A stretch of DNA of 45,777 nucleotides from Candidatus Doudnabacteria bacterium (GTDB lineage Bacteria; Patescibacteriota; Doudnabacteria; UBA920; O2-02-FULL-48-8). Shown here piece by piece: positions 9,169 through 45,556 of this stretch. A model generated the notes under the pieces. That model made no database searches. It was not told the origin of the DNA and saw only the letters and a program-made list of their open reading frames with translations. The position numbers and the translations under genes were made by a program. The stretch spans positions 1-45,777 of the forward strand of contig JACQHB010000005.1 of NCBI GenBank assembly GCA_016199215.1. Direction: 5' to 3'. Each line of letters opens with the position of its first letter. The first letter of the stretch is position 1.

Positions 9169-10272
9169 CTAAATAACTTTTATAATCCCGCCGCCAAGCA
9201 GTTCCTCTCCCTTGTAAATTACGGCAGCTTGGCCAATAGTAATCGCCCTCTGGGACTTTTTAAATTTGATTCCAAGATTCCCGTTCCTTTTCTTTCTGAT
9301 CTCTCCTGGATAATCAGGATGGTGGTATCGAATTGTAATTCCGGCCTTAAGCGGAAACTTTGGTTCAGTTCCGGTCCAGCTTACATCAGCAACTTCGAAC
9401 TCGCGCTTCCAGAGTTTTCCGTCTAAGACATTGTTTGTCACCACCAGCTGGTTCTTCTCCAATTTTTTTTCAGCCACATAATAAGGACCGTTGCCGCCCA
9501 GGCCAATTCCTTCCCGCTGGCCAATGGTGTAAAAAGGCAAGCCAATATGTTTGCCGACTACCTTTCCCGCGGTTGTGACAATCTCCCCTTTTCTTGCCTT
9601 AATGTGTCCCTGCAAAAACTCTCGCACGTTAATCTTACCGATAAAGCAAATCCCCTGGGAATCTTTTTTGGCAAAGTTAGGCAGCTTGAATTTTTTTGCA
9701 AGTTCCCTGACTTGGCTTTTTTTGTAATCGCCAATTGGAAATAAAATTTTTGAAAGCTGGTCTTGCTGTAATGTGTATAGAAAATAGCTCTGATCTTTTG
9801 CGGGATCGATGCCCTTCAAGAGTTTAATTTTGACTTTTGCATTGTCATTTTGACTTTTGATTTTTGACTTTTGAATTCTTGCGTAGTGCCCTGTAGCCAC
9901 AAAATCCGCGCCTAATGACAAGGCTTTTTCCAAAAAAACTTTGAACTTAATTTCCTTGTTGCACATCACATCAGGATTGGGGGTTCTGCCCGCTTTATAC
10001 TCGCGCAAAAAATATCCAACAACCCGCTTATAATATTCTTTTTCAAAATTCCAGACATAAAACGGGATTTTTAAAATCTCCGCCGCTTTTCGCGCGTCTT
10101 CCGCGTCAGCCGCCCAAGTGCAGCCGTAATCCCCCACGTCATCCGACCAGTTTTTCATAAACACGCCAATGACATGAAAACCTTGCTGTTTTAGCAAAGC
10201 CGCGGTAACAGAAGAATCAACGCCACCGCTCATTCCAACCACTACCTTTTTCTTCCTATTATTTTCCTTCAT
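9169..10272 (-). CDS. mnmA: tRNA-specific 2-thiouridylase
   Basis: GMSGGVDSS, PNPDVMCNKEIKF, ATGHYAR, KDQSYFL, KKDSQGICFIG, YTIGQR. Confidence 0.97.
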   Translation of the reverse strand: MKENNRKKKVVVGMSGGVDSSVTAALLKQQGFHVIGVFMKNWSDDVGDYGCTWAADAEDARKAAEILKIPFYVWNFEKEYYKRVVGYFLREYKAGRTPNPDVMCNKEIKFKVFLEKALSLGADFVATGHYARIQKSKIKSQNDNAKVKIKLLKGIDPAKDQSYFLYTLQQDQLSKILFPIGDYKKSQVRELAKKFKLPNFAKKDSQGICFIGKINVREFLQGHIKARKGEIVTTAGKVVGKHIGLPFYTIGQREGIGLGGNGPYYVAEKKLEKNQLVVTNNVLDGKLWKREFEVADVSWTGTEPKFPLKAGITIRYHHPDYPGEIRKKRNGNLGIKFKKSQRAITIGQAAVIYKGEELLGGGIIKVI

Positions 10273-10310
10273 ATCTGGGATAGTTTAGCAAAATTTAAAA
10301 CACAAGTCCA

Positions 10311-10410
10311 CGAGCGAGACTTTTGGTAAAAACTAGGAAGCAGGTTGCAAAAAATCGGCTTCCATGCCGATTTTTTGACAACCGTTAGTTTTTATCCAAA
10401 AGTCGAGCGA
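10311..10410. mobile_element. MITE-like long imperfect hairpin (10318-10403) flanked by 7-bp direct repeat CGAGCGA
   Basis: acttttgg/ccaaaagt termini, taaaaacta/tagttttta, caaaaaatcggc/gccgattttttg; cgagcga at 10311-10317 and 10404-10410. Confidence 0.6.
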
Positions 10411-10413
10411 TAA

Positions 10414-12159
10414 TTAAAATTGTATCTTATCCCCCGGGCTCAATGTCCCAGTTTTGTCCTTCTCGTCAGGCTGCTCCACCTTCTGTATCGGCTTTGGAGG
10501 CTGGGGCATAATGGGTTTCTCCTGCTTTGGGGGGTCAGCAGGCTTTGGGTCTGGAAACGCTTTGGTGATCTGTTCTGCCGTTTTTTTGGCGTTTTCGTTA
10601 AACTTTTGGTCGGAAAGCTTGCTTACTGTTTGCCAAACAGGGTTTTCTTTTGGCTTGTCCTGGCTTTTCTTTTCATGTCCGTAGTTCGCATGGTGTTCCT
10701 GACCGTGCCGCTGCGCTCCCCTGTCCGTTCGCGGCTCAAGCGGGGCTGTCTGGCGTATTGTTTGGGAAGGCCCTGCAGTCGCTCTTTCCTGATATCGCAA
10801 ATTTTCCTGCATATCTTCCTGCTCTACCGCCGAACTTTCAATCTCGGCCGCGGCAGTGTGGAATTCCGCCCCCATCCATTTGTTGATTTTTTCCTCAACA
10901 CTTGCCCGGTTGTTGGCATATCTTTCCCTCGAAACTTTTATTACTTTTTCCTCGTTTCCCGTGGTAACAGAGATCGGGGGCAACGTTGTCGCTGAAAAGG
11001 GGCTGGAAGACACTCCATTGATCATCAGCTTCAAGTAAATCTGGTATTTGGCCAAGTTAAGCAAATCGTTTGGGGTATAAGTAGGCTCGAACTCGGTTTC
11101 CAAAAACTCGGCGTCATCAGCCCCGACCCTGAATATGATCAAAGTGCCAACGTTGCCGAAAATCGCGTCCCGAACAACCGTATTCTTTTCGCGGACCAGC
11201 TGGCCTATGTATTGGTGGGCCACGATCAGGTTCAGCCGATATTTTCTTGCCTCGGACAAGATATTGGCAAAAGACTCCGTGGCAAAATTCTGGAACTCGT
11301 CCACATAGAGATAAAAATCCTTGCGATCTGCTTCCGGTATATCAACACGACTCATCGCGGCCAGCTGCAGCTTGGTAATCAGCATGGCCCCCAACAATCC
11401 TGAATTGTCTTCGCCGATCCGTCCCTTGGACAAGTTGATCAAAAAAATCTTCCGGTTGTCCATAATATCGCGAAGGTCAATCGAACTTTTTGTCTGTCCC
11501 ACTATATTGCGGATGATCGCTGACGACAAAAACTGTCCGACCTTGTTTTGAATCGGGGCGATTGCCTCATTCCGAAACTTGTCGTTGTAATTTGCAAACT
11601 CGTCCACCCAGAACGACTTAACAACAGGGTCCTTAATATTATCCACTATTTTTTTGCGGTAGGTTTTATTCACAAGCATTCTGGCCATTCCCATCATGGT
11701 ATTGCCAGGCGAATCAAGAAGCGCCAGGATTGTGTTTCCAAGAATATATTCCATTCTTGCCGACCAAACCCCGGCCCAAATTTTGGTAAACACGCCCATT
11801 AGGCCGGAAGCAACCAAATGCTTATATTGGGGATCAACCGATTCCAGCGGATTAAACGCGATAGGATAGTCAACGTCGGCAGGGTTGAAATAAACCACGT
11901 CGTTGATCCGGTTTGCGGGAATATAAGATAGAACTTTTTCAACTGAATCCCCGTGCGGGTCCACAAATGCAACTCCATGCCCGTCCTGAATATCCTGGAT
12001 CACCATATTTTCAATCAATGTCGTTTTGCCCATCCCGGTTTTCCCCATGATATACATATGCCTTCTGCGGTCATCTCTGCGAATGCCAAAAGGCACCTCT
12101 CTGTTGCGGAAGTTGGTTTTGGCAAACAAGGTTATGTCATTGTCTTGTGCTTGATCCAT
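10414..12159 (-). CDS. VirD4/TraG/HerA-like (DUF87) ATPase, CPR-type coupling-protein homolog
   Basis: Walker A GKTGMGKT, Walker B LYVDEFQNF, SEARKYRLNLIVAHQY; low-complexity C-tail. Confidence 0.88.
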   Translation of the reverse strand: MDQAQDNDITLFAKTNFRNREVPFGIRRDDRRRHMYIMGKTGMGKTTLIENMVIQDIQDGHGVAFVDPHGDSVEKVLSYIPANRINDVVYFNPADVDYPIAFNPLESVDPQYKHLVASGLMGVFTKIWAGVWSARMEYILGNTILALLDSPGNTMMGMARMLVNKTYRKKIVDNIKDPVVKSFWVDEFANYNDKFRNEAIAPIQNKVGQFLSSAIIRNIVGQTKSSIDLRDIMDNRKIFLINLSKGRIGEDNSGLLGAMLITKLQLAAMSRVDIPEADRKDFYLYVDEFQNFATESFANILSEARKYRLNLIVAHQYIGQLVREKNTVVRDAIFGNVGTLIIFRVGADDAEFLETEFEPTYTPNDLLNLAKYQIYLKLMINGVSSSPFSATTLPPISVTTGNEEKVIKVSRERYANNRASVEEKINKWMGAEFHTAAAEIESSAVEQEDMQENLRYQERATAGPSQTIRQTAPLEPRTDRGAQRHGQEHHANYGHEKKSQDKPKENPVWQTVSKLSDQKFNENAKKTAEQITKAFPDPKPADPPKQEKPIMPQPPKPIQKVEQPDEKDKTGTLSPGDKIQF

Positions 12160-21433: not shown

Positions 21434-22396
21434 TTACCACGGTTTGTCCCAATCAAAACCGCGGCCGAAGTGCCCCCAAGAAGCCGTGTTTGCAAAAATC
21501 GGACGGTTAAGTTTCAACAATTTTTTAATTCCTGCGGGAGTCAGGTCATATTGCTTGCTGATATCCGTTATCTGATATCTACTATCTGATTTGAGGACTT
21601 CCGCTGTTGCCATAACCGGCAAGGGTTTCCCAATCGCGTAAGCCAGTTTTACTTTTACCTCTTTAGCTTTTTTCTTCTTTAAAAGGTCAACCGCTATTTT
21701 GCGGGCCATATAGGCTCCGCTGCGGTCAACTTTCGTGGCGTCCTTTCCCGAAAAACTCCCACCGCCCACGGAAATTTCAGGCCCATAAGCGTCAATCACT
21801 ATTTTACGCCCCGACAAGCCGGAATCCGCGTCAAAGCCGCCGAGAGTCCATTCGCCAGCCGGATTAACAAAATATTCCTCGGACTTAATAAGTTTTTTTG
21901 CAAGCTTCAACAGATCTTTAGTTTTTGAATTTTGAAAAGACGCGACAACAGCCAGGACTTTCTTCTCATCAACGGTCACTTGGACCTTGCCGTCAAACGG
22001 GTAGATTTTATAAATTTTTTGGCACAGTTCGCGCGCGAGATTGTATTCCTGCGGCATAAAATTTTCACTCTCTGCCGTGGCACAGCCAACCATGATTCCC
22101 TGATCCCCTGCTCCGCCCTGATCAACACCGCGAGCGATAAACGGGCTTTGATGAACCGTGTGCAAGTGAACGTGGTAACCCTTCCCAACGACTTTTTTAA
22201 CAACAGCTTCTATGTCAACTTTAGCTTTGCTTGTTATTTCGCCGCTTATAGAAACCCCTTTATGACCTCCCATAACCTCAACCGCCACCCTGGAATTCGG
22301 GTCTTTTTTTAAATAAGCGTCCAGAATGGAATCAGCAATAAAATCGCAAATTTTATCCGGATGCTTTGGGCTTACAAACTCGCAAGTTTTGATCAT
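21434..22396 (-). CDS. metK: S-adenosylmethionine synthetase (short form)
   Basis: TCEFVSPKHPDKICD, GAGDQG, NPAGEW..GG...DSGLSGRKI, GGGSFSGKDATKVDRSGAY, WGHFG. Confidence 0.96.
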   Translation of the reverse strand: MIKTCEFVSPKHPDKICDFIADSILDAYLKKDPNSRVAVEVMGGHKGVSISGEITSKAKVDIEAVVKKVVGKGYHVHLHTVHQSPFIARGVDQGGAGDQGIMVGCATAESENFMPQEYNLARELCQKIYKIYPFDGKVQVTVDEKKVLAVVASFQNSKTKDLLKLAKKLIKSEEYFVNPAGEWTLGGFDADSGLSGRKIVIDAYGPEISVGGGSFSGKDATKVDRSGAYMARKIAVDLLKKKKAKEVKVKLAYAIGKPLPVMATAEVLKSDSRYQITDISKQYDLTPAGIKKLLKLNRPIFANTASWGHFGRGFDWDKPW

Positions 22397-22415
22397 GTTT
22401 AGAAATTAGAAATTT

Positions 22416-22439
22416 AAAAACTTTCCAAAAGGAAAGTTT
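22416..22439 (-). terminator. Riboswitch expression-platform terminator
   Basis: aaactttcc/ggaaagttt stem plus U-run, between aptamer and metK ATG. Confidence 0.65.
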
Positions 22440-22446
22440 AGATCGC

Positions 22447-22628
22447 GTTATCTTTCCCTCTCGGGCTGGATTTGGCACCTTCTTATGTAGTCAGTCGATT
22501 TATCGACTCGGTTGAGCTGATAAATCAGCCCCGAACCAGACACTCCGTGTCGGTACGGGGCAGGCTGACTACGAAAGGGTTGCCGGACGGATCATAAGGC
22601 CAGAACCTTTCCCGTCACTCTTGATATT
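22447..22628 (-). ncRNA. SAM-I (S-box) riboswitch with an 86-nt insertion in P3
   Basis: Minus: ATATCAAGAG..GGGAAAGG..CTGGCC..ATGA...CGGCAACC [insert] GGTGCCAAATCC.GC....GAAAGATAA; upstream of metK; TTGCTT-N17-TATAAT promoter at 22643-22671. Confidence 0.9.
22487..22572. mobile_element. Palindromic element (family C) with GTAGTCAG/CTGACTAC termini inside the riboswitch
   Basis: Internal palindromes agtcgatttatcgact and gctgataaatcagc plus ccccg...cgggg hairpin. Confidence 0.75.
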
Positions 22629-34383: not shown

Positions 34384-34722
34384 TCAAGTCTTTCTCTTCG
34401 CGCTGCGGGCCCCGCGTTTCTGCAAAGTCGCCCGTCTGTCTTTAAATTTGGAGATTTGTTCTCTAAGTTTGGGGATCGCGAGATCTATCGCCGCGTAAAT
34501 ATCTTCGCCGTCCGCTTCCGCGCGCATTATTTTGCCGCCAACGATCAGCATCAACTCAGCGCGGAAAATTTCTCCACTGCGGTGCTTTCTTGACCGCTCA
34601 AGCTCAATTTTTGCCTCTATCGGCCCCGAAATATACTTTTCCATCCCCCTGACCTTCTCTTCAGCGTATTGTTTTATCGAAGATATCAACGGCAAATGCG
34701 TTGACTTTATTGAAATGTTCAT
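34384..34722 (-). CDS. hpf: Ribosome hibernation factor HPF/RaiA
   Basis: IKQYAEEKV, AEADGEDIYAAIDLAI.KL.EQI.K.K. Confidence 0.92.
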   Translation of the reverse strand: MNISIKSTHLPLISSIKQYAEEKVRGMEKYISGPIEAKIELERSRKHRSGEIFRAELMLIVGGKIMRAEADGEDIYAAIDLAIPKLREQISKFKDRRATLQKRGARSAKRKT

Positions 34723-34825
34723 CCCGTTTAGAAATTTTTGATTAATTATTTACAAAGATAATTTATAATTTCCCGCTAGATTATAATACTAGAATTATTT
34801 GCCGCATTCAAATTTCTAACGGGAT
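34721..34825. repeat. Inverted pair of CCCGTTAGAAA motif (family B), pair 1
   Basis: atcccgtttagaaattt ... aaatttctaacgggat; left arm supplies the hpf ATG. Confidence 0.8.
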
Positions 34826-34834
34826 TCATATATT

Positions 34835-35872
34835 TTAATTGTTAAAATTCCCCACGTAAATTATCTCTTCTTCTAAATTAAGGCCAAATTTTTCCTTCAC
34901 AGCTTGTCGGATATTCGAGGTAAACGCCCTGATATCCGAAGCTTTGGCTCCGCCTAAATTAACCACAGTTAAGGCTTGCCGCGAAGAAATGCCGACCTTG
35001 CCCAAAGCATATCCCTTGCTAAAACCCGCCGATTCAATTAGCGCGGCCGCGGCTACCTTTACCTTGTCCCCTACATCCCAAAACCATGGAGGTTTGCACT
35101 TTTGCAGTTCTTCTTTTATCTTATCAAATTTTTTTTGCTCAACAACAGGGTTTTTGAAATAAGAACCGGCTGAATTGTATGATTCAAACCCGGGCATGAT
35201 CAAATGGCCTTTTCGCGCCCGAACGCTTAACACCGCGTCCCTGACAAGCGCTAAGGTTGGCGCTTGTTTATTGCTTTGGAAAAATTTAATGATATCCGGA
35301 TAAGTAACCGTTGGCAAACCGCCAGGCTTGAGCGCGAACTTAACAGAGGTCAACAGATATTTCCCGGGGTTCTGCTTCAAAAAGCTTGTCCGATAACCAA
35401 AACCGCAGTCTTTGGCAGAAAGAGTCTTGATTTCGAAGGCTCGCATATCTATTGCGGTCACGCTTTCAACCACATCGCCCACTGTCTGTCCGTAAGCGCC
35501 AATATTTTGCACTATCGCCCCTCCCAATGAGCTGGGAATCCCGGAAAGCGTTTCAATTCCGGCAAAACGACCCTCAACAGACTTTTGCACCGCCAAATCC
35601 CAAGCCTCGCCTGCTCCCCCTTCCAAAACTCCTTCTTGAGTTATTGACAATCCTAATATTTCGTTTTTGATTACTAATCCGTCAAAGCCTTTGTCGCTGA
35701 CCAAAATATTGCTGCCTCCGCCCAGAACAAACACTCCCAACTTGTTTTCAGCGGCAAACGACAATGCTTCCCTTGCCTCTTCCAGATTCTTTACTGAAAC
35801 AAAAAATCGGGCAGGCCCTCCAACCCTCATCGTCGTAAACAGCGCCAACTCTTTATTTTTTTCTATCTGCAT
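34835..35872 (-). CDS. murB: UDP-N-acetylmuramate dehydrogenase
   Basis: TTMRVGGPA, LGGGSNILVSD, GIPSSLGGA..QNIGAY, FGYRTS, SAGSYFKNP. Confidence 0.96.
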   Translation of the reverse strand: MQIEKNKELALFTTMRVGGPARFFVSVKNLEEAREALSFAAENKLGVFVLGGGSNILVSDKGFDGLVIKNEILGLSITQEGVLEGGAGEAWDLAVQKSVEGRFAGIETLSGIPSSLGGAIVQNIGAYGQTVGDVVESVTAIDMRAFEIKTLSAKDCGFGYRTSFLKQNPGKYLLTSVKFALKPGGLPTVTYPDIIKFFQSNKQAPTLALVRDAVLSVRARKGHLIMPGFESYNSAGSYFKNPVVEQKKFDKIKEELQKCKPPWFWDVGDKVKVAAAALIESAGFSKGYALGKVGISSRQALTVVNLGGAKASDIRAFTSNIRQAVKEKFGLNLEEEIIYVGNFNN

Positions 35873-35875
35873 ATT

Positions 35876-36610
35876 TTATTCTTCAAACCTGAATCTCCAC
35901 ACGGCCAAGGCATAAGCACCCACAGCCCAAATCAGGAGAAAGACTAAATCAAGCAAAATAGTCTGCCAGTTTCCAGGGGTCAAATAAATATTCCTTAAAC
36001 CATCAGCCAGATAAGTTGTCGGCAAAATTCTGCTTAGGGATTGAAGCGCAGAGGGAATTACTTCTATGGGATAAAAAATATTGCTCAGAAATCCAAAAAC
36101 AAATCCAATACCCGCGGTAATCGGCGCTACTGCTTCATAAGTCCCGCCAAAAGTGGAAATAACCAGGCCCAGCGGAAGGAACACGAACGCTCCAACTATT
36201 ACGAATAGAAGAATCAAAAGTAAATTTCCCTCAATAGGAGCGTTAAACATGAAAACCCCGATCAGAGTCAAAAGAAGCACTTGTACAAGCATAACTACGG
36301 ATCGCGCGGCTACCAGGCTTAGAATAAGCTCTGATTTTTTTATAGGCGTTGCCTGAAACCTTTTGATCACTCCTCTTGAGCGTAGATCAACAAACCAATA
36401 AGCCAGAGTATAAATCCCCCCTTGCATGATCGCAAACGCTGCGACCCCCGGCAAAATATAATCGGAATAATTTATCCTCATCAAGGAATCCAAAGGCAAA
36501 ACAGAAAGCACCACGTACATCCCCAAAGGCATGATCACAGTCCAAAAAAATCCCGAACGGTTGCGGTAAACGACCTTAAGATGACAGAGGAATAATTGCC
36601 AAAAACTCAT
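35876..36610 (-). CDS. ABC-2 type transporter permease
   Basis: RGVIKRFQATP, six TM, P.TY...GLR. Confidence 0.88.
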   Translation of the reverse strand: MSFWQLFLCHLKVVYRNRSGFFWTVIMPLGMYVVLSVLPLDSLMRINYSDYILPGVAAFAIMQGGIYTLAYWFVDLRSRGVIKRFQATPIKKSELILSLVAARSVVMLVQVLLLTLIGVFMFNAPIEGNLLLILLFVIVGAFVFLPLGLVISTFGGTYEAVAPITAGIGFVFGFLSNIFYPIEVIPSALQSLSRILPTTYLADGLRNIYLTPGNWQTILLDLVFLLIWAVGAYALAVWRFRFEE

Positions 36611-37518
36611 GACGTAAACTCCCTTCCTGTTAAGTCAAGATAAACATCTTCCAATGTAGCTGTTTTAACCATGAACCCGCTGAATTCAATATGGTTTGCT
36701 CTTAAAATCTCAAGTACTTTCGGAATTATCTCCAGAGAAGTAATTTCCAAAATGACTTTGGGGTAACTGCTGTACATCTTTTCCACATCCTTGACCAAAG
36801 ACCAAATCGAGGCGTCAATCTCCTCTTTTACAAAAAAAGAAACTTGAGTTGTCTGCCTAAGATTGTCAATTAACGTCCTTGGCTCGTTGATAGTAAGAAT
36901 CTCGCCTCGATCCATGATTGCTACCCGATCGCAAAGATATTCAGCCTCCTCCATATAGTGTGTTGTCAGCACTATTGTCGCGCCTTGATTTTTGATGTCC
37001 CTGATCAATTGCCAAAGCCCTCGTCTTGCTTTCGGGTCAAGCCCAGTGGTCGGTTCGTCCAAAAAAATAAGTTTCGGCCTATGGACCAAACTGGTCGCAA
37101 TGGTAAACCTTTGCTTCTGGCCGCCGGACAAGTTCTGATAAACTTCCGCCGACTTGTCTTCAAGCCCGACTAGCTTTAAAAGCTCGCTGTTGCCGCTGCT
37201 TTTATATAAAGAGGCAAATAACCTGATCAATTCTTTAAGGGTAAGAAAATCGAAGTAGCCGCTGGTTTGCAGCTGGACCCCAATCAGGCGTTTTACTTCC
37301 GTCGGATGATTTTCAATATCCAATCCCAAAATTTGGACATTCCCTGAAGTCTTTTTTTTAATTCCTTCCAAAATTTCAAGCGTGGTTGTTTTTCCCGCCC
37401 CGTTAGGGCCCAGAATCCCAAAAATCTCTCCTTCAAAAACTTCAAACGATATCCCTCTGACAGCTTCAAAGGAAAAATAATTTTTTATTAGATTTTTTAC
37501 CTCAATAACGTTAGCCAT
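36607..37518 (-). CDS. ABC transporter ATP-binding protein
   Basis: GPNGAGKTT, LSGGQ, LDEPTTGLD, TTHYMEEAE. Confidence 0.96.
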   Translation of the reverse strand: MANVIEVKNLIKNYFSFEAVRGISFEVFEGEIFGILGPNGAGKTTTLEILEGIKKKTSGNVQILGLDIENHPTEVKRLIGVQLQTSGYFDFLTLKELIRLFASLYKSSGNSELLKLVGLEDKSAEVYQNLSGGQKQRFTIATSLVHRPKLIFLDEPTTGLDPKARRGLWQLIRDIKNQGATIVLTTHYMEEAEYLCDRVAIMDRGEILTINEPRTLIDNLRQTTQVSFFVKEEIDASIWSLVKDVEKMYSSYPKVILEITSLEIIPKVLEILRANHIEFSGFMVKTATLEDVYLDLTGREFTS

Positions 37519-38902
37519 GTGCTATTTTTCTCGCGAGTTGGTCTATATCGCCGGCGCCCATAAAGATAATCATATCAAAATTATCCGCCTCCTGTCTCGC
37601 CATGTTTTCCGTTTCCGCAAGATTGGGAGCAAACCTTGCCCGAACCCCCAATTTTGTAAGTTCAGAGACCAGGTTTGCGGAGCTGATATCTTCCCCGTGC
37701 TCGCGTCCAGCGACGTCAAAAATTTCCGGGATAATCACGTCATCCGCGTTTCGCAAGGCTTCCACAAAATCACCGAACAATTTTTGCGTCCGGTTCCTAT
37801 GGTGCGGCTGGAAAACCAGCAAAATCTTTTTTTGCGGGTAAAATTCCTTTGCCGCCGAAAGCGTGGCAGTAATCGCGGCTGGGTGGTGTCCGTAATCCGT
37901 CACAATCGTTGCCTTTCCCGTCTTGCCCAAAATTTCGAATCTCCGCCAGGTTCCGGCAAATTCCTTCAAAACTTGTTCTATCACCGAAACATCGGCGCCC
38001 AGTCTGATTGCCGCAAGGACTGCTCCCAACGCGTTTGAAACATTAAATTTACCAGGGACGGCCAGTTCGAATTTCCCGATAAGGTGATCCTTATAGTGCA
38101 AATCAAAACTTTGTTTCCCCAAAGATACTTTCATGTTCATTGCCTGAAGATCCGCGTAATGATGGATCCCAAAAGTAAATTTATGCCCGCCAAATGCCCT
38201 TCCGATTTGAACCGCGTGCTCATCATCGGCATTGTAAATCAGCACTCCGCCATCCGGAAGACTTTTGACAAACTGCGTAAACGCTTCCTTTATTTCCGCC
38301 AGGTCCCTGTAATAATCCAGGTGGTCCTCCGCAACGTTAGTCAAAATAATCATGGAGGGATGAAGATTAAGCATATGCCGAAAATACTCGTCCGCTTCAG
38401 CGACAAATATCTTGGAATCGCCCAGCCGGGCGTTTGCCTGAAAACCGTCATTCTCGTTCTGTGATGAGAGTTTTGTCCCGATTACCACGGTGGGGTCAAA
38501 CCCTGCCGCGTCTAAAATTAGGCCAAGCATTGCGGTAGTTGTGGATTTGCCGTTTGTTCCACTAACAGCAACCCCAAACTTTCCTTCCATGAGCAAGCCG
38601 AGTGTTTGAGCGTAAGTCAAGGTTTGGATATTCTGCTGTTTTGCGATTTCTACTTCGATTATTCCCTGTCCCTTCGCAACATCCTCGCTATACACAACCA
38701 ATTCAGGTTTACGGATATTTGCCTGGCTGTGGCCGATAAAAATTACGGCCCCCAAGCGCTCCAGGTCTTGGGTAATCTTGGAAGCGCGAAGATCCGAGCC
38801 GGTTACTTTCTTGCCCATTGCCAAAAACAAACGGCCAAGAGCAGAAACCCCAATCCCGCCGATTCCTACAAAATGGACCCGGTTTATTTTTTTGACATCC
38901 AT
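37511..38902 (-). CDS. murC: UDP-N-acetylmuramate-L-alanine ligase; likely start MDVKK at 38902
   Basis: HFVGIGGIGVSAL, SGTNGKSTT, EADEY, DHLDYY, DYGHHP, FQPH. Confidence 0.95.
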   Translation of the reverse strand: MDVKKINRVHFVGIGGIGVSALGRLFLAMGKKVTGSDLRASKITQDLERLGAVIFIGHSQANIRKPELVVYSEDVAKGQGIIEVEIAKQQNIQTLTYAQTLGLLMEGKFGVAVSGTNGKSTTTAMLGLILDAAGFDPTVVIGTKLSSQNENDGFQANARLGDSKIFVAEADEYFRHMLNLHPSMIILTNVAEDHLDYYRDLAEIKEAFTQFVKSLPDGGVLIYNADDEHAVQIGRAFGGHKFTFGIHHYADLQAMNMKVSLGKQSFDLHYKDHLIGKFELAVPGKFNVSNALGAVLAAIRLGADVSVIEQVLKEFAGTWRRFEILGKTGKATIVTDYGHHPAAITATLSAAKEFYPQKKILLVFQPHHRNRTQKLFGDFVEALRNADDVIIPEIFDVAGREHGEDISSANLVSELTKLGVRARFAPNLAETENMARQEADNFDMIIFMGAGDIDQLARKIAHG

Positions 38903-39021
38903 CCCGTTAGAAATTCCAGTTTTAATATTAGCAATCTTGTAATTTTCCATAATGCCCACTAGGATTAGAAAACACCATTCTATTTTTTAATTTTAGGATT
39001 TTTATCTATTTCTAACGGGAT
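38901..39021. repeat. Inverted pair of family B motif, pair 2
   Basis: atcccgttagaaat ... atttctaacgggat; atccat on both outer sides. Confidence 0.85.
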
Positions 39022-39999
39022 CCATTGTTTTTGTTTCTGATGACTCTTAATCAAGTTTACTATTTTAGGCACGGCTTCCAGGGCGGCTCTTCGCCCTTCC
39101 TTATAAATCACTTGAAGGTTATCCGAATTCAGCTCTGTCTTTCTCCACTGTCTCACTTTAGGGGTAATCATCAAATCACAAGCCATATCGGCATCAGTCC
39201 ATCTGTCGGATATTTCCATCGAATGATCCAACGCCTTAGTCAAAATTTTAATGATTCCGGGATTTTTGCGCTTAGCTTCCGGGTTCTTGACGAGGTCCAG
39301 AATTTTTTTCATAAGCGTCATCTGCTTGCGCGTAAAATAAGAAAGTCCGGTATACTTTGTGACCATCCTGTATAATCTCCAATAAGGCAGTTTTTTTTCA
39401 TAAATAAAACGAGCGCCTGAAACATTGACTCCTATAACTATATCAGCACCCATTTCCCGAACCGGCAAGGTAGGAACTATGTTTACCAATCCGCCATCTA
39501 CCAAAAGCTTGCCCCCTAAAACTATGGGCGGGAACAGTCCTGGAACTGCCGTGGATGCTTTGACCGCCGTGATTATCTCTCCCCAACTCACAGTGACCAA
39601 CTCGCCCGTATTTACGTCAGCCGCCGTGAAACCAAGTTTAGGGTAACTGTTTTGGAAAGTTAAGCCATCTGATAATTTTTTAAGCACTTCTTCACCCTTG
39701 CCAAATTCAAAAATTCCGCCTTTTTTGCTCGTCAGCGACCACATGCCAACCAGCTTCTGCAGGCTGATGCTGTGCATGAATTTTTTAAAATAATCCAATT
39801 TATTATTGGCGTAAGCCACTGCCACAAGCGCGCCGGAAGAGCACCCAATCATGTAATCAATCGGGATTTTGTGCTCCTTAAAAACTTCCAGCACTCCAAC
39901 TTCGGTAATTGCCCTGCTTGATCCTCCAGACAAGGCTATACCGATCGTGGGCCTATTTAAGTTGTCCTGCGACAACTGATGCAATTTTGTCTTCTGCAT
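38980..39999 (-). CDS. Patatin-like phospholipase
   Basis: ALSGGSSRA, GCSSG (GxSxG), AVPGLFPP, LVDGG. Confidence 0.9.
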   Translation of the reverse strand: MQKTKLHQLSQDNLNRPTIGIALSGGSSRAITEVGVLEVFKEHKIPIDYMIGCSSGALVAVAYANNKLDYFKKFMHSISLQKLVGMWSLTSKKGGIFEFGKGEEVLKKLSDGLTFQNSYPKLGFTAADVNTGELVTVSWGEIITAVKASTAVPGLFPPIVLGGKLLVDGGLVNIVPTLPVREMGADIVIGVNVSGARFIYEKKLPYWRLYRMVTKYTGLSYFTRKQMTLMKKILDLVKNPEAKRKNPGIIKILTKALDHSMEISDRWTDADMACDLMITPKVRQWRKTELNSDNLQVIYKEGRRAALEAVPKIVNLIKSHQKQKQWIPLEIDKNPKIKK

Positions 40000-41059
40000 T
40001 TTGTGGCATTAGGTTCTTAATATTTTTGGAAAGTAGTTTCTGCCGCTGGGGATTAAACTTTATGATCGTGATCACTTTAAGAAACTGCTGGGGAATGGCC
40101 TCGTCTTTTTCCAAGACAATGGCCGCATGGGCGTCCTTGAGTATTTTAGCATTTTCTTCCTGATGGCTCCCGGGCATGGGCAAAATAATGGAGGCCTTGC
40201 CAGCGGCGGAAAGCTCCGCTATGGTCGAAAGCCCGGCTCTGGCCACAACAATATGGGCAAGGTTCAAAATAGCGGCATAAGGACCAAATGGGATTAATTC
40301 ATAAGGGTGGTAATTCGGGTGGGTAAAACTGATCAAATTTTTGCCTTTTCCAGTTTGGTGGATCACTTGGTGGGAAGATACCAGGCTTGAAAAAGTTTGG
40401 GCAACAAGCTGGTTGATTTGGGAAGCTCCGGTCGCCCCGCCCAACACCAGCAGAATCGGGAGCTGGTCATGGATGCCAAAAAACTCTTTTTGCGAAAGAT
40501 CGGGTTTTTTGACTTCCGAACGGACTGGATTGCCAACCCATTCGGGAACTGATATTTTCTCCTTTTTAAAAAGACCGGATCCAGAATGAAAATTTTTGGC
40601 AGTCTGTTCGAAGGCCGTGGTGATTGCTGAAGCCATGGGGATAACTAACTTGTTTGCAAGTCCTACTCTCGCGTCCTGCTGGTGAATGACGATTTTGGTT
40701 CCCATCATTTTCCCCACCCAGCACAATGGCACAGCGACAAAGCCTCCCGCGGAAAAAATCAGGTCAGGCCTGAATTTTCTCAAAATTTTCCAGCTGGAAA
40801 CCAGGCTTAACAAAAAAACAAAAACATCCGCTACGTTCATTAAAGAAAAATATCTCCGGAGCCTCGCTGCTCTGATTCCTACAAAATTTATTCCAGTCTC
40901 GGCAACCAAGATTTTTTCCGGCCCATTTTTGGTTCCGACAAATAAAAACTTCACGCCTGGAATTTGCTTTTTTAATTCTTCAGCCACGGCCAAAACAGGA
41001 CTCACCGGCCCGCCAGTTCCCCCGCCCGCCAATAGTATCTTAAACTGTTTTGATCCCAT
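39953..41059 (-). CDS. murG: Undecaprenyl-PP-MurNAc-pentapeptide GlcNAc transferase
   Basis: AGGGTGGPVSP, GGFVAVP, HQQD...GLANK, GNPVR, GGATGA, RAG.STIAE, HQEENA. Confidence 0.95.
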   Translation of the reverse strand: MGSKQFKILLAGGGTGGPVSPVLAVAEELKKQIPGVKFLFVGTKNGPEKILVAETGINFVGIRAARLRRYFSLMNVADVFVFLLSLVSSWKILRKFRPDLIFSAGGFVAVPLCWVGKMMGTKIVIHQQDARVGLANKLVIPMASAITTAFEQTAKNFHSGSGLFKKEKISVPEWVGNPVRSEVKKPDLSQKEFFGIHDQLPILLVLGGATGASQINQLVAQTFSSLVSSHQVIHQTGKGKNLISFTHPNYHPYELIPFGPYAAILNLAHIVVARAGLSTIAELSAAGKASIILPMPGSHQEENAKILKDAHAAIVLEKDEAIPQQFLKVITIIKFNPQRQKLLSKNIKNLMPQNAEDKIASVVAGQLK

Positions 41060-41081
41060 GTAGTCAGCCGATTTATCGGCT
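41060..41081. repeat. Palindrome family C copy abutting the murG start codon
   Basis: gtagtcagccgatttatcggct. Confidence 0.8.
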
Positions 41082-41098
41082 TCGTAGAGGCTTTTTAA

Positions 41099-42208
41099 TC
41101 AGCCAACTACGGAACCGTATAAATTAATAGTTTCTTGTGCTGCCATTTTCCAATTAAAATGCTTTGACCGCGATAACCCCAAGTTCGCCAGCTCTTCCAA
41201 CCGCTTTTCGTTTTTGAGCAAATTTTCTAGCACATCAGTCATATTTTCCAAATTATTCGGATCAAAATATTCCGCGCCCTGGCCCAAAATTTCTCGAAGC
41301 GTTGGTATATCGGAAGAAACAATAGGGACGCCGCACGATGCGGCTTCAAGAGCCGTAAGCCCGAATCCTTCTGACAAAGATGGCAGGACAAACAAGGTTG
41401 CTGCATTATACAAAGCCTGCATATCAGAATCAGAAACCCTGCCAGGGCAAACAATATGATCTGAATGGTTTACGCTTAAAATCTGTTGCTTAATTTCCGG
41501 ATAAAAAGGATCAGGCTCGCCTGCCAATACTAATTGCAGGTCCAGTCCCTTATCAATCATCCGGCTGAAGGCGCGGGCAAGCATTGGGAGATTTTTATAC
41601 CGCCTCCAAACTCCAACATAAAGTATAAAGGGTTTGGATATCCCGAATCTATTGGCTATTTGATCGAAGGCTTCCTGCTTATCCATCATCCTAAACGAAT
41701 CATTTGCCCCTTCGTAAATTGTCACTGTTTTGTCGTCTACATTTCCAAATACTTCCTGGATTTCGTTTTTCGTCCCATTGGAAACGGCGATAATTTTTTT
41801 TGCGGATTTAATCGCGTTCGACAAGACAAAATTATACGCTAGGCGGTGAAAAAAATGGGATTTTTTTCGGCCGGGAAATTTGGAGTGCGTCAAATCATGG
41901 ATTGTGACTATAAAAGGCTTGCGATAAAAAATAGGAACGTTGAAATGCGGAAAATGAACTAAATCCAAATTCTCTTTGTTCAAAACCCGCGGCAGTCTCA
42001 ACTGCTCCGCAACCGAGTAATGAGGAATGCCTGTAATAACAATTTTGCGGTTAAATTTTTTGTAGTCAGCCGATTCATCGGCTCTTCTAAAAAACAAAAC
42101 GTATTCGTTTTTCTTATCCATTTCCAAAATCTTCTGAGACAACTCAAAAATATACCTCGAAATCCCCGACCCCCCTCCCAGCATCCTTAAATCTAATCCA
42201 ATTCTCAT
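41099..42208 (-). CDS. GT4 (GT-B) glycosyltransferase
   Basis: RIGLDLR, VTIHDL, YVGV..RYKN, PSLSEGFGLTALEA..CG.P..SSD. Confidence 0.92.
   Translation of the reverse strand: MRIGLDLRMLGGGSGISRYIFELSQKILEMDKKNEYVLFFRRADESADYKKFNRKIVITGIPHYSVAEQLRLPRVLNKENLDLVHFPHFNVPIFYRKPFIVTIHDLTHSKFPGRKKSHFFHRLAYNFVLSNAIKSAKKIIAVSNGTKNEIQEVFGNVDDKTVTIYEGANDSFRMMDKQEAFDQIANRFGISKPFILYVGVWRRYKNLPMLARAFSRMIDKGLDLQLVLAGEPDPFYPEIKQQILSVNHSDHIVCPGRVSDSDMQALYNAATLFVLPSLSEGFGLTALEAASCGVPIVSSDIPTLREILGQGAEYFDPNNLENMTDVLENLLKNEKRLEELANLGLSRSKHFNWKMAAQETINLYGSVVG
42062..42083. repeat. Palindrome family C copy in frame inside the GT4 gene
   Basis: gtagtcagccgattcatcggct, encoding RADESADY. Confidence 0.75.
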
Positions 42209-42254
42209 AGTTTCTGAATCTTGCTTAACACTTCAAAATTCTACCGAATACTTT

Positions 42255-42289
42255 TAATACTGCAATACGAGAAAGTATTGCAGTATTAA
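42255..42289. repeat. Palindrome family D, copy 1 (TAATACTGCAATAC-gagaaa-GTATTGCAGTATTA)
   Basis: 14-bp perfect stem; 34 bp identical to 42804-42837. Confidence 0.95.
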
Positions 42290-42777
42290 ATCGGCAGTTG
42301 TTTTTTTCCTGTAGATTTCCTAATCGCTCCCCTAATCACATTCCTAGCACCCCTCAAGCCAGCTTTGGCCAAATTCTCTACCAAAACTTGTTCTCTAAAT
42401 TTTGGAAACCTTTTCCTTTCCAAAAAATCTTGATACTTATCTCTCCTCGCCTGATAGGCTTTGCCCAATGCTTGTAACTTTGCATGAGCAACTCTCAACC
42501 CCTTACCATCTCGAGCTAGAGTATTACTAACAGTTGCAATAGTGTGCTCTGTCACTTTTAGATCACTAGAAATCTCTTCGTAAGTTTGCCCTTCCAGTAA
42601 CCTCCTCGCTATCTCTAGTCTCTTTGCAAACATTTTATACTCAGTATGAGTAAAGAGATCCCGAAACAACAATCGAATATCTTCTTTTTTATCGATTAAT
42701 GTAAAAACAGACCAAAGGTTATTAATATAATAGCCAAAATCCTTAGGATCTAAATTCAGTCTAGACAGTTTCGTCAT
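42286..42777 (-). CDS. TrpR-like YerC/YecD family DNA-binding protein
   Basis: LFRDLFTHTEYKMFAKRLEIARRLLEGQTYEEI...L.V...TIATVSN.L. Confidence 0.88.
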   Translation of the reverse strand: MTKLSRLNLDPKDFGYYINNLWSVFTLIDKKEDIRLLFRDLFTHTEYKMFAKRLEIARRLLEGQTYEEISSDLKVTEHTIATVSNTLARDGKGLRVAHAKLQALGKAYQARRDKYQDFLERKRFPKFREQVLVENLAKAGLRGARNVIRGAIRKSTGKKQLPI

Positions 42778-42803
42778 CTAATAAATTATAGCTTGCGCTT
42801 TCG

Positions 42804-42837
42804 AATACTGCAATACGAGAAAGTATTGCAGTATTAA
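42804..42837. repeat. Palindrome family D, copy 2; supplies the -35 of the YerC-like promoter
   Basis: Minus TTGCAG-N17-TATAAT, 7 nt before the ATG. Confidence 0.93.
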
Positions 42838-43937
42838 GACGCTAAATGTTTAAAGTCCTGATACTTCCCTTCTACAAATTCCTTAATCTTCTTCTGGAAA
42901 ATCTTCTTATCGAAATTTTGGGCGTGCTGGCGGATGATATTTGGATCAAACTTCGCAGTATCAAAGCTTTGAATCGCCTGCTTTATCGATTCCGAAGATT
43001 GGGTTTCAAAAAACTTCCCAGTTACTCCTTCCTTGACAATCTCAACAGCACCTCCGGCTCTGTAAGTGATCACCGGCGTGCCGCAGGCTTGCGCTTCCAA
43101 CATCATAATCCCGGCGTCCTCTTCGGCTGGAAAAATGAATGCCTGGGCTTCCGAATATCTTTTCCGAAGCTCCTCGTCCGAAACACGACCCAAAAACTCA
43201 ATATTGCTCCTGGCCATTGCCCGAAGTTTTTCGGAGTTTGTACCAGACCCGGCAACTTTCAAGGGCAAACCAAGTTCGTTAAATGCGGAAACAACTAATT
43301 CAATTTTTTTATAAGGCTCAAGCCTTGAGGCCACAAAAAAATAATTCTCTTTCTTCCCTTCCGGATGGAAAAGTTCAGTATCTACAGGAGGCCAGATCAC
43401 CTCTGCGTCGCGCTTGTAATATTTCTTGATACGATTTTTCACGTTTTCTGAATTGCAAACAAAAAAATCAGGGCCTTGCGCGGCAAAATAATCCCATTTC
43501 TTCAAAACCTTAAGCACGGGACGCGCCAACCACTTGGCCCAAAAGGGATAAGGCTGGCTTGCTAAATAATCTTCTTGCTCTGTCCACAAAAATCTGGTTG
43601 GAGTATGGCAATAGCAAATATGAAGCTTACCCTTGGCTTTCACGCCTTTCGCAAACGAAGAGGCGTCTGAAAGAATTAAATCGTAATCTGAAAAATCAAA
43701 AGTCCTGACAGCGGAAGGCATAAGCGCCAAAAACCAGCGGTGATGATTTTTTGCCAAAGGAAGCCTCTCCAAAAAACTTATCCGCTTGTCATAAGCCTCA
43801 AAAATCCCTTTGGTTTTGTCTTTGTCATATATCAAAACATGGATCGTGGCATGCGGCCAGATCTCGAGAAAATTTTGGAGAACCCTTTCGGCTCCTCCAA
43901 GCTGCGTTAAAAATTCGTGAACTAAAGCTATTTTCAT
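42834..43937 (-). CDS. GT4 glycosyltransferase
   Basis: KIALVHEFL...GGAERVL, YCHTPTR, SRLEPYK, EEDAGI..LEAQACG.PVI. Confidence 0.92.
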   Translation of the reverse strand: MKIALVHEFLTQLGGAERVLQNFLEIWPHATIHVLIYDKDKTKGIFEAYDKRISFLERLPLAKNHHRWFLALMPSAVRTFDFSDYDLILSDASSFAKGVKAKGKLHICYCHTPTRFLWTEQEDYLASQPYPFWAKWLARPVLKVLKKWDYFAAQGPDFFVCNSENVKNRIKKYYKRDAEVIWPPVDTELFHPEGKKENYFFVASRLEPYKKIELVVSAFNELGLPLKVAGSGTNSEKLRAMARSNIEFLGRVSDEELRKRYSEAQAFIFPAEEDAGIMMLEAQACGTPVITYRAGGAVEIVKEGVTGKFFETQSSESIKQAIQSFDTAKFDPNIIRQHAQNFDKKIFQKKIKEFVEGKYQDFKHLAS

Positions 43938-43970
43938 AGTTAGATCCCCGATTGCTTGTCCTAACCTTCG

Positions 43971-45389
43971 CTAATAATCCACCTTTGACTTACGGCCCAT
44001 TAGGATCAAGATTGTTTTGAAAATTATGTAAAAATCAAGCCAGATGGACCAGTTTTCGATATAGAAAGAATCAAGGCGGATTTCTTCTTCAAATGAAAGC
44101 TCCGGGTTATAAGCTTGGGTAATCTGGGTCAAGCCTGTTGCGCCTGGCTTAATGATAAAAATTTTCTTGTAATTATCCTGGAATTTTTCCACTTCTTTGA
44201 CCATATGGACCCTAGGGCCAACCAAACTCATCTGCCCCCGCAATATATGCCAAAGCTGGGGAAGCTCGTCGATCTTTGTCCGTCGAATAAATCTTCCCAC
44301 TTTGGTAACCCTCGGATCGTTTTTGATTTTTACAAACGGTCCTTGTCTGGAATTCTGTTTCTCAAGCTCGGCCCGAAGTCTATCCCCACTCTCCGTGCCC
44401 TCGCTCATCTCGTAAAACATTGACCGGAATTTGTAGCATTCAAAAGAGGCTAAGCGGGCGGCCCTTGGCTGATGGAAAAATATCGGCCCCTTTGATTCCA
44501 GTTTAATCGCAATAGCTGTAAGTAATATGATCGGACTTGAAAGAATTAATCCTAGAAGTGAAATAATCACATCCATCAGCCTTTTGATGGCTCTTCCCCA
44601 CCCTTCAAGCGGGGTTCCTTTCAAAACTATGATCGGCATCCCGGAAATCGTTTCGACGCTGACATTGGTGGTGGAAGTTTCAAAAAGGTTCGGGACAAAA
44701 TTGAACCGAATCCCATAATCGCGGCAAAACAGCAGAATCCGCGCGGCGATTTCCTGGTCCAAAAAAGGATCTGCCTGCAGCAGTTCATCTATCCCCGTAT
44801 TAATCCTCAACTCCTCCAACTTCCGAATCAGTTCCTGCGGATCCGTTTGGGAATCAAACAATCCCACCGCTCTGAATCCCGTCTCCGGACGGGACTTTAT
44901 TTGATAAACTAAATCTTCTTTCTTATCCTCACCCACGATTACCGCAAGCCTGTGCAATCCAATCCCTTGTCGCAGCATCTGTACCTGGACTATACGAAGG
45001 ACAATCCTTCCCAGGCTGATGAAAACAATAGTTAGAACCCAAGTCAACAAAATAATAAGCCTGGACGGAAAAACTGTTTGGTTGAAAAAAAACAAAACCA
45101 CCACCAGCAAAAGCGCAGAGGAGGTGGAAAGCGTGATCCTGGAAAGTTCGTGCACGATCCGACGGGTACCTTTGAGATTGTAAAGCCCGGCGATTGCCAG
45201 CAAGCAGATAATTATGGGGCTGACAAGAATCAAAATCCTTAAATAATCAGCAAACAGCAAATTGTAAAGTATTGGCCGGACTTCTTCCAATTCGAAGCGT
45301 AAATAAAAAGCGGCAGTGCCTGCCAGGATTATCATCAAAAAATCCACCACAATCGAGATTAAATTGAAGAGAAGTTCAGAGCGCTTCAT
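43971..45389 (-). CDS. Undecaprenyl-phosphate sugar phosphotransferase (WcaJ/WbaP family)
   Basis: KRLMDV, KFRSM, KNDPRVTKVGRFIR...DELPQLW..L.G.MSLVGPR. Confidence 0.94.
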   Translation of the reverse strand: MKRSELLFNLISIVVDFLMIILAGTAAFYLRFELEEVRPILYNLLFADYLRILILVSPIIICLLAIAGLYNLKGTRRIVHELSRITLSTSSALLLVVVLFFFNQTVFPSRLIILLTWVLTIVFISLGRIVLRIVQVQMLRQGIGLHRLAVIVGEDKKEDLVYQIKSRPETGFRAVGLFDSQTDPQELIRKLEELRINTGIDELLQADPFLDQEIAARILLFCRDYGIRFNFVPNLFETSTTNVSVETISGMPIIVLKGTPLEGWGRAIKRLMDVIISLLGLILSSPIILLTAIAIKLESKGPIFFHQPRAARLASFECYKFRSMFYEMSEGTESGDRLRAELEKQNSRQGPFVKIKNDPRVTKVGRFIRRTKIDELPQLWHILRGQMSLVGPRVHMVKEVEKFQDNYKKIFIIKPGATGLTQITQAYNPELSFEEEIRLDSFYIENWSIWLDFYIIFKTILILMGRKSKVDY

Positions 45390-45502
45390 CCCGTTAAAAA
45401 TTGATTACGCTTAAGAATATGCGTTATTAGCAAAAATCCCGTTTAAGACCATGCATCGCAGGCTTACGCTTTTTATTGAGAATTAGCTATTTCTAACGGG
45501 AT
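45388..45502. repeat. Inverted pair of family B motif, pair 3
   Basis: atcccgttaaaaat ... atttctaacgggat; left arm supplies the ATG. Confidence 0.8.
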
Positions 45503-45522
45503 TCATCCCTATCATTATAATC

Positions 45523-45556
45523 AAAAGACCCGCGTTTATCAACGCGGGTCTTTTTT
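45523..45556 (-). terminator. Intrinsic terminator after the RRM gene
   Basis: aaaagacccgcgtt-tatc-aacgcgggtctttt. Confidence 0.9.

Follow-up and report, generated by a model that had tools for sequence, protein, structure and literature searches.

The stretch of DNA analysed here, called the window, is a contig of 45,777 nucleotides from a Candidatus Doudnabacteria bacterium (JACQHB010000005.1 of assembly GCA_016199215.1). It is contig C2 of this assembly, which we name G000 and which comprises 521 kb in 16 contigs and is 79% complete. Three genes on its minus strand, hpf, murC and a sugar transferase gene, begin directly behind one arm of a pair of inverted motifs. An earlier note on this DNA had described the three pairs, and their arms were located at all three genes. 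In the direction of transcription the downstream arm runs straight into the ATG, exactly at murC, with a one-base insertion at hpf and a one-base substitution at the sugar transferase, as the note had read it. In kind, the paired motifs are miniature transposable elements with inverted repeats (MITEs), judged by four features of the sequence: inverted ends, a flanking duplication of fixed length, empty sites with the target word present once, and a coding element with the same ends. Gene starts were assigned by a simple open reading frame (ORF) rule. At the gathering threshold the sole Rfam match in the window was a tRNA.

The first copy occupies 34718..34829 on the minus strand and was recognised by its arms, its duplications and the empty sites in relatives. 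It sits on the start codon of hpf (34384..34722, minus strand), which encodes a ribosome hibernation factor (Ribosomal_S30AE, PF02482, 2.3e-19). The gene-proximal arm at 34723-34735 reads CCCGTTTAGAAAT and has one extra T, and the distal arm lies at 34812-34823. Both are enclosed by the word TTCAT, which downstream (34718-34722) contains the ATG of hpf (34722..34720) and upstream is found at 34825-34829, separated from the element by an extra base A at 34824. The gene murB (34835-35872, MurB_C and FAD_binding_4) ends 5 nt before this upstream copy, which reads ATGAA in gene orientation. The interior contains CGGG, TATAAA and TAATCA boxes. The earlier note had placed TTGAAT-N17-TATTAT between the arms, and our consensus scan found it at 34783..34811 on the minus strand, a promoter-like sequence that faces hpf and matches 9 of 12 positions. 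Among the hpf orthologues, the full element was present on the ATG in five genera and a partial one in two, while the site was empty in eight genera of the family. In the relative G007 only the downstream arm was retained. The upstream junction reads ATGAA-T, whereas the gene continues with ATGAA-C, and the extra base is therefore not templated by the sixth base of the target. We considered whether the hpf insertion is one old orthologous event, marked by the ATTTCTAAACGGG variant of G000, G014, G007 and G008. This variant also occurs in unrelated copies and is thus no marker of common descent. The interiors of the hpf copies had diverged as far as saturated third codon positions.

The second copy (38898..39025, minus strand) has an interior of 93 nt between two exact arms at 38903-38914 and 39008-39019. 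Here the duplicated word is TCCAT, located downstream at 38898-38902, where it contains the ATG of murC (38902..38900), and upstream at 39021-39025, with the extra base A at 39020. The murC gene occupies 37511..38902 on the minus strand. It genuinely begins with the ATG at 38902, from which MDVKKINRVHFVGIGGIG is read. Orthologues were found in all 24 relatives, and the alignment begins at residue 1. At this junction G007 has ...gtcaATGGATatc with ATGGAT once, which is an empty site, and G000 and G010 have ATGGAT-element-ATGGAT. In 17 relatives that were compared, the element was present in G010 only and 16 sites, that of G007 included, were empty. The ORF of a patatin-like phospholipase (38980..39999, minus strand; PF01734, 1.3e-23) crosses the upstream arm, confirming that this arm lies in the patatin coding sequence. 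It terminates within the element, which provides its last ~14 codons and the stop (38980-38982). The coupling of murC to patatin translation that had been proposed is unlikely because the patatin stop is 78 nt upstream of the murC ATG. An annotation trap was also seen at this gene, in that the longest murC ORF (37511-38959) opens at a GTG inside the MITE (38959).

The third copy (45385..45506, minus strand) is on the start codon of the bacterial sugar transferase gene (43971..45389, minus strand; Bac_transf PF02397, 8.1e-60, with a CoA_binding_3 domain). Its gene-proximal arm at 45390-45401 reads CCCGTTAAAAAT with one substitution, and the distal arm is at 45489-45500. The word TTCAT at 45385-45389 contains the ATG (45389..45387) and is repeated upstream at 45502-45506, again with an extra base A, at 45501. 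The element was present in G000 only, and the site was empty in 23 of 23 relatives. A native near-consensus promoter, TTGATA-17-TATAAT (45514..45542, minus strand, 11 of 12 positions), lies 7 nt before the upstream ATGAA copy. In the orthologues of G001, G002, G005, G014 and G027, an extended -10 box (TATAAT, TATACT or TAGAAT) is followed after 6-7 nt by the ATG, which argues that the gene was ancestrally leaderless. Together with the position of the promoter in G000, this means that copy 3 landed at +1 of a leaderless transcript. The native promoter now leads to a mini-ORF (MNPVRNS*) that reads into the copy. The repeated outer flanks of the earlier note are thus TTCAT/TTCAT at hpf and the sugar transferase and (A)TCCAT/(A)TCCAT at murC. 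Near-identical strains with a presence/absence polymorphism were not on record for the hpf or the sugar transferase locus. A single metagenome scan for the upstream flank followed by ATGAA came back empty, and a search of genome contigs with MurC returned only an unrelated Flavobacteriales match.

To see how far the motif extends, the 11-mer of the arm was counted. With at most one mismatch it occurs five times in the window; shuffled sequences had a mean of 1.24 and 0 of 100 reached five. The exact 11-mer has 24 occurrences in G000. About 17 inward-facing pairs, 5'-CCCGTTAGAAAT...ATTTCTAACGGG-3', were found in G000 at a spacing of 34-275 bp, mostly 94-117 bp, and 13 of these 17 elements had one arm flush on an ATG (11) or a GTG (2) of an ORF of at least 66 aa. 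Unpaired copies without a bias towards start codons, which the earlier note had named as its refutation, were therefore not what the genome showed. The weaker echoes that it saw before metK (22394-22405) and the GT2 gene at 3905 were single unpaired partial matches, and 42 of 100 shuffles gave at least one such match. As a separate observation, several GC-rich stems lie upstream of metK (window 22400-22560); no Rfam family matched them at the gathering score, and the region may be a divergent SAM-type leader.

Outside G000 more than 150 pairs were found. The arms measure 12-14 bp and the elements of the family 26-120 bp, mostly ~100 bp without a gene. For the scoring of duplications the element was taken as CCCG...CGGG. 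A perfect 5-bp direct repeat flanked 46 of 83 elements in G000 and its relatives and 38 of 79 elements from ~80 unrelated public genomes, where chance would give 1 in 1024 per element. In a few elements the duplication was 6-8 bp long. The duplicated word was mostly ATGAA in Doudnabacteria, and ATGGA, GTCAA, GTAAA, GTTGA and GTGAA were also seen, giving the consensus N-T-x-x-A. Between the upstream repeat and the element stood a single extra base, which was the complement of the first base of the repeat in 46 of 46 and 37 of 38 cases, respectively. Such a templated base is atypical for a MITE. The inverted repeat always reaches into the flank, by the extra base plus the T...A of the target. 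In G008 and G013 tandem arrays TTCAT-element-TTCAT-element-TTCAT were observed, and bare palindromes of 26-28 bp had duplications of their own. The earlier note had also considered old MITEs with duplications of 5-6 bp. Perfect duplications, empty sites, tandem re-insertions and the spread across phyla bear out the MITEs, whereas their being old is doubtful since most upstream copies of the duplication, which are not under selection, have stayed perfect.

The arm was present in 62 of the 401 genomes of our phylum sample in a very patchy distribution, and at least 120 stretches with exact arms came from many Patescibacteria classes and other phyla. Taken together, the comparisons show insertion with a target duplication, regeneration of the start codon and patchy spread across phyla.

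Several members of the family stood apart. A 51-bp member (G037:C7, L043 1514-1564) lies in frame within a type IV pilin leader, MKNRSGFTPFEIARPKGQRARFLTG|FTLIELLVV, where the word encoding G-F-T was duplicated and the prepilin cleavage site is thereby rebuilt behind the insert. A size class of 61-65 bp has a 12-bp outer stem and two GC-rich internal hairpins, whose sequence varies in a constant layout (G000 C1:25424-25488 and C6:36902-36963; G013:C4:348301-348362; L085 and L089). The duplications of this class start with G (GTCAA, GTAAA) and lie away from start codons.

We then asked how strongly start codons are favoured. G000 contains 1308 ATGAA sites, of which 104 are at predicted starts and 101 intergenic, the rest lying inside genes. 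If only start and intergenic sites tolerate an insertion, ~50% of the ATG-type duplications are expected on starts. The observed number was 34 of 38 on real starts (p = 6e-7), an excess that reflects either true targeting or a strong filter. A -10-like hexamer was found 4-9 nt before the upstream ATG copy at 13 of 34 sites, compared to 22% of all ORFs (p = 0.02). This enrichment is suggestive, and striking at the sugar transferase. A general targeting of leaderless transcription starts was discarded, as the enrichment is modest and many sites are operon junctions. Two further candidates were rejected. For a ribosome-binding signal complementary to the 16S rRNA, the 3' end of that rRNA is missing from the partial assembly; Shine-Dalgarno-like words precede only 18% of ORFs. 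An integron attC site has the opposite core-site orientation, and the genes concerned here are housekeeping genes.

To compare the interiors, 26 copies with lengths of 92-106 bp were turned to read towards the gene and aligned. These form a local subfamily with the consensus CCCGTTAGAAAT - TttAcaTaG - ~16 variable - aCGGG - n4-5 - TATAAa - ~10 AT-rich - TTAACTAATCAt - TATTTCTAACGGG - ATG. The hpf copy is a member of it, and the murC and sugar transferase copies are more diverged. The description of the three interiors as unrelated is therefore true only in part, given the conserved internal boxes of the hpf copy. The CTAATCA box, which holds stops in several frames, lies on the gene side in 24 copies and on the far side in one (p = 1.5e-6). 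The mini-ORF that begins at the upstream ATG (MNPVRN...) runs for 7-17 codons in the copies of the window. Facing the gene, the TATAAa box lies ~37 nt ahead of the ATG and is a possible promoter.

A coding relative of the MITEs is present on another contig of G000 (C4:86928-87202). This sister unit of 275 bp has the arms CCCGTTAGAGACA/TGTCTCTAACGGG and between them an ORF for a GIY-YIG protein of 86 aa, a single domain that matched PF01541 at 2.8e-14 over residues 1-67. The ORF has the coordinates C4:86927-87184. Its final codons, TTC CTG TCT CTA ACG GGA TGA, are the arm itself, and the TGA overlaps the ATG of the next gene. When 185,579 species genomes were scanned for exact MITE arms at a distance of 235-265 nt, 36 elements of ~275 bp were recovered in 35 stretches, and at least 28 of the 36 had a GIY-YIG ORF of 83-95 aa. 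The ORF ends in the right arm, either as ...RFLFLTG-stop or in another frame as ...F-stop. The nuclease-bearing elements follow the identical duplication rule to that of the MITEs. The hosts of the 36 elements are Saccharibacteria, Wolfe-, Nomura-, Portnoy- and Moranbacteria, Kazan, Omnitrophota, Sedimentisphaerales and others. Across phyla the proteins are 56-73% identical, and the catalytic Y, Y-G, R, E and N are invariant or nearly so. The predicted structure (pLDDT 91) had its best matches in UPF0213 BH0048 and the nuclease domain of Slx1, with TM-scores of 0.6-0.66.

Whether nuclease and motif occur together was analysed in two sets of genomes. In the relatives, 7 motif-rich and 34 motif-poor genomes were compared, and homologues of at least 71% identity were present in 5 of the 7 and in 0 of the 34 (p = 3e-5). 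Full-length homologues with 71-74% identity were confined to G008, G009 (two copies), G010 and G013, all motif-rich, and their elements have ATGAA-T...ATGAA junctions. In the sample of 401 genomes of the phylum, 23 were motif-rich with at least 6 arms. A close nuclease (E <=1e-24) occurred in 9 of them, against 12 of the remaining 378 (p = 2e-7). Arm identity with an element that encodes only the nuclease and the statistical association thus both link the nuclease to the MITEs, and we infer that it is their mover.

Other GIY-YIG clades in the relatives (~85-91 aa) have distinct terminal inverted repeats that are flush with an ATG on both sides, namely CCCAGTAATACAACTT.../...AAGTTGATATACTGGG, ACCCCCTCACCAA/TTGGTGAGGGGGT and CCAGGTAGTGAAAATTCGA/TCGAATTTCTACTACCTGG. 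They were seen at the loci L099, L101, L104, L108 and L109; L100, L103 and L107; L106; and G000 C5:~9970-10430. In addition, small GIY-YIG genes were noticed in or against tRNA genes (window 4273-4592; G000 C1:3178-3420 and C6:38235-38462). A part of the tRNA is duplicated on the far side of the gene. In the window, next to the tRNA at 4273-4344, GGGGAGTAGCCAAGCGG is found before and after an 85-aa ORF at 4368-4592. These tRNA-associated genes are without CCCGTTAGA arms. In G009 (C9:5025-5369; L065 326-670), a 98-bp MITE with AAAT-type arms was found inside the 3' arm of a nuclease-bearing element, with the duplication TCCTG and an extra A, and the C-terminus of the nuclease is truncated. In G038 (C79; L044 265-499), MITE arms with the duplication GTTAA enclose a 64-aa winged-helix-like ORF (MKNDIPREKVLAKMLALIKKMPGIRPSQLNRVLNLEH...) and no nuclease; its TGA stop overlaps the right arm.

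We hold it about 80% probable that the paired motifs are terminal inverted repeats of MITEs that duplicate start codons and that a GIY-YIG relative moves them. As the sequence comparisons show, the element enters a pentamer N-T-x-x-A, usually a start codon and two further bases, with duplication of the 5 bp. The downstream duplication keeps the ATG of the gene flush against ...TTTCTAACGGG, and for this reason the motif appears to supply start codons. The upstream duplication stays with the old promoter or leader and opens a short dead-end ORF (MNPVRN...). The nuclease would act in trans on the arms, perhaps reading them as a DNA hairpin or cruciform, and would move the MITEs as well as the coding form. 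In the Doudnabacteria subfamily, the outward -10-like box and the AU-rich leader may restore expression of the gene. An RNA stem between the arms would be a by-product that may dampen the translation of read-through transcripts.

A bolder step is that the ~275-bp unit is an autonomous DNA transposon with the Slx1-like GIY-YIG nuclease as its only protein, and for this we see not quite even odds. The nuclease would cut N-T-x-x-A with a 5-nt stagger and a preference for start codons, and the three pairs of the window would be gene-less riders that rewire the 5' ends of essential genes in ultra-small bacteria. GIY-YIG nucleases cut DNA, and to our knowledge a strand-transfer or joining activity has not been described for them. 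Host repair would therefore have to complete the insertion, which in turn would explain the one templated extra base.

The missing joining activity is one of several points that weigh against a nuclease-driven MITE. The sole copy of this nuclease clade in G000 has arms that are unlike the MITE arms at positions 10-13. In 14 of the 23 motif-rich genomes of the phylum sample, no close homologue of the nuclease was found. Alternative cargo occurs between MITE arms, in the winged-helix-like ORF of G038 and in non-nuclease interiors of 260-290 bp, and GIY-YIG genes are selfish elsewhere in G000, inside tRNA genes. Within one genome the arms are perfect and the interiors highly diverged, which is unusual for a simple MITE burst, and the arms possibly have a function at the level of the host. 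The hpf occupancy in 5-7 genera may reflect a hot spot or old inheritance. Finally, transposition was deduced from comparing sequences, and no event was seen.

Some of these points would also fit a mobile element that is moved by another enzyme, either a conventional transposase in trans or host recombination, with the GIY-YIG gene as a passenger. We regard this as unlikely, though it is the strongest of the alternatives. The transposase could come from a phage, a plasmid or a community member, and the element would be a mobile insertion cassette. Terminal repeats with a fixed-length duplication are the classic signature of a DDE transposase, selfish invasion is known for GIY-YIG genes, and both the other cargo between identical arms and the 14 of 23 motif-rich genomes without a close nuclease agree with a passenger. 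However, when 20 motif-rich genomes were searched for conventional transposases, DDE_Tnp_1 was found in 1, rve in 3 and Y1_Tnp in 6, so these domains were missing from most, closed single-contig genomes included. Nor was an arm-bounded transposase element seen in 155 loci, in which no arm pair was more than 330 bp apart and only spacing classes of <150 bp and 250-300 bp occurred. Two apparent larger elements were rejected. A 2.6-kb pair in G075 encloses rplT, rpmI, infC and smpB and consists of two separate elements, and a 1.3-kb interval in G037, with an RHH-like and a small toxin-like ORF, likewise lies between two separate elements. Against a passenger also stand the large lead of the nuclease over all other cargo (at least 28 of 36), the fusion of its coding sequence with the right arm, the different terminal repeats of different clades and the fact that its presence predicts motif abundance (p = 2e-7). 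We also noted a Y1_Tnp domain of the IS200/IS605 type or RAYT-like in a ~218-aa open frame of G000 (C12:9377-9607). ORFs of the Y1_Tnp type were present in G010, G014 and G019 as well, and no link with the motif was seen.

As the first of its two readings, the earlier note had proposed a pairing of the two arms on the mRNA that gates translation. As an evolved riboregulator, the upstream arm would hide the start codon and make translation dependent on the promoter in use or on translation of the upstream ORF. A 14-bp stem AUCCCGUUAGAAAU/AUUUCUAACGGGAU that takes in the AU of the AUG was indeed predicted in the minimum free energy and centroid folds of the murC and the sugar transferase copies. 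The C to U substitution in the sugar transferase arm keeps a G-U pair, the transcript from the native leaderless promoter of this gene must carry both arms, and the arms are perfect while the interiors diverge. In the predicted fold of hpf, however, the long-range stem was not used, and the z-scores of the three copies (-2.5, -0.85 and -1.7) were modest. The element is missing from 23 of 23 sugar transferase relatives, 16 of 17 murC relatives and more than half of those of hpf, so these genes do not share the stem as a conserved regulatory design. At hpf, G007 retains the downstream arm alone, and identical arms flank the nuclease gene and form bare palindromes in unrelated phyla. Covariation of the arms does not distinguish RNA pairing from the identity of terminal repeats, and terminal repeats with a target duplication fully explain the pattern, for which gated translation is not needed. 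We therefore consider a riboregulator improbable. The stem looks like the by-product expected of any transcript across an element with terminal inverted repeats. A regulatory side effect is possible from the modelled folds, and with both arms on the native sugar transferase transcript a dampening would be plausible there.

Were the motifs not mobile DNA but repeated operator sites that bracket promoter regions and are bound by a regulator or a nucleoid protein, this would account for perfectly conserved arms around variable interiors and for the promoter-like sequence between them. We give this very little credence, as target duplications and clean empty sites show insertion, the identical 12-mer is patchy in distant phyla, some elements lie in frame within coding sequence as in the pilin leader, and no regulator gene is associated. 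Invertons, in which a recombinase flips a promoter-bearing interior between inverted repeats, share with our elements the 12-14-bp inverted repeats around 60-100 bp, promoter-like boxes, a place directly upstream of genes and surface-polysaccharide genes among the neighbours, but they can practically be set aside, since they do not make flanking direct repeats and empty sites, the internal boxes point one way relative to the gene in 24 of 25 copies, and the targets are housekeeping genes (murC, hpf).

Among described elements, the MITEs of this family resemble the Correia/NEMIS elements of Neisseria, RUP of Streptococcus pneumoniae and MITEAba12 of Acinetobacter. These are likewise short and gene-less, with inverted ends and duplications, and occur in many copies beside genes, with possible outward promoters and hairpins in the transcripts. 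They derive from DDE insertion sequences (PMC6382973; PMC3184786). In our family, by contrast, the sole coding relative encodes a GIY-YIG nuclease, the start-codon target is regenerated by the duplication with one extra templated base, and exact arms common to several phyla enclose highly diverse interiors.

Of the published systems, Ssn with its NTS/SRM repeat comes closest. Ssn is a small single-domain GIY-YIG nuclease for single-stranded DNA that is flanked by its own repeat (Chenal et al. 2025, PMC11893778). Genomes with the gene have this repeat in amplified number, and different homologues pair with different repeats (PMC11893778). Its authors remarked on the insertion-sequence-like layout of repeat, gene and repeat and proposed a role in the control of transformation; target duplications, empty sites and start-codon targeting were not reported for these repeats (PMC11893778). 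Both systems have a single-domain protein of ~100 aa and a repeat abundance that tracks the gene. The gene of Ssn has on either side an SRM repeat that is a self-contained hairpin of 20-50 nt, whereas here the gene lies between two arms, half-sites of 12-13 nt that make one inverted repeat around the cargo. Ssn, with its clade cd10448 and its site-specific cleavage of single-stranded DNA, was compared by description.

In predicted fold and catalytic residues the nuclease matches Slx1 and UPF0213/YhbQ (PDB 7cq2, 4xm5, 6sei; 1zg2). Slx1 cuts branched and hairpin-like DNA, and inverted arms could form such a substrate. It needs Slx4 and a RING domain and serves in DNA repair, whereas here a bare domain of 83-95 aa is found in an inverted-repeat cassette. 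IS200/IS605 elements and their gene-less derivatives (PATEs, and REP/REPIN with RAYT transposases) are similarly tiny and hairpin-dependent, with a short specific target word and clean empty sites, and the gene-less derivatives far outnumber the coding copies. They leave the target unduplicated, their two ends are dissimilar and their transposase is of the Y1 HUH type; our elements have duplications, and Y1_Tnp was present in only 6 of the 20 motif-rich genomes. The seg genes of phage T4 are free-standing selfish GIY-YIG homing genes between host genes, with an expression tied to their neighbours. Homing copies one locus into the allelic empty site, without inverted ends, a duplication or dispersed gene-less copies, all of which are seen in the elements described here. 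A literature search gave no description of prokaryotic GIY-YIG elements with terminal repeats and duplications, and none of MITEs in Patescibacteria. The GIY-YIG nuclease may be an undescribed kind of transposon enzyme.

For hpf, murC and the sugar transferase gene, our results mean that a selfish insertion has displaced the native upstream region by ~100 bases from the start codon, which survives only because the insertion duplicates it. Annotation pipelines will call wrong starts at these places. For the family, a single terminal repeat of 12 bases is identical letter for letter across many uncultivated bacterial phyla. If the nuclease is the mover, it would represent a new transposon class as well as a DNA cutter that is compact, programmable and structure-specific; the work on Ssn hints at both without showing either. 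If the ~275-bp unit is autonomous, its transposase chemistry would be outside the DDE, HUH, serine, tyrosine and Cas1 classes and it would be the smallest autonomous mobile element of cellular genomes. The family also offers a natural experiment on how far the replacement of 5' ends is tolerated in genomes that are poor in Shine-Dalgarno sequences and often leaderless.

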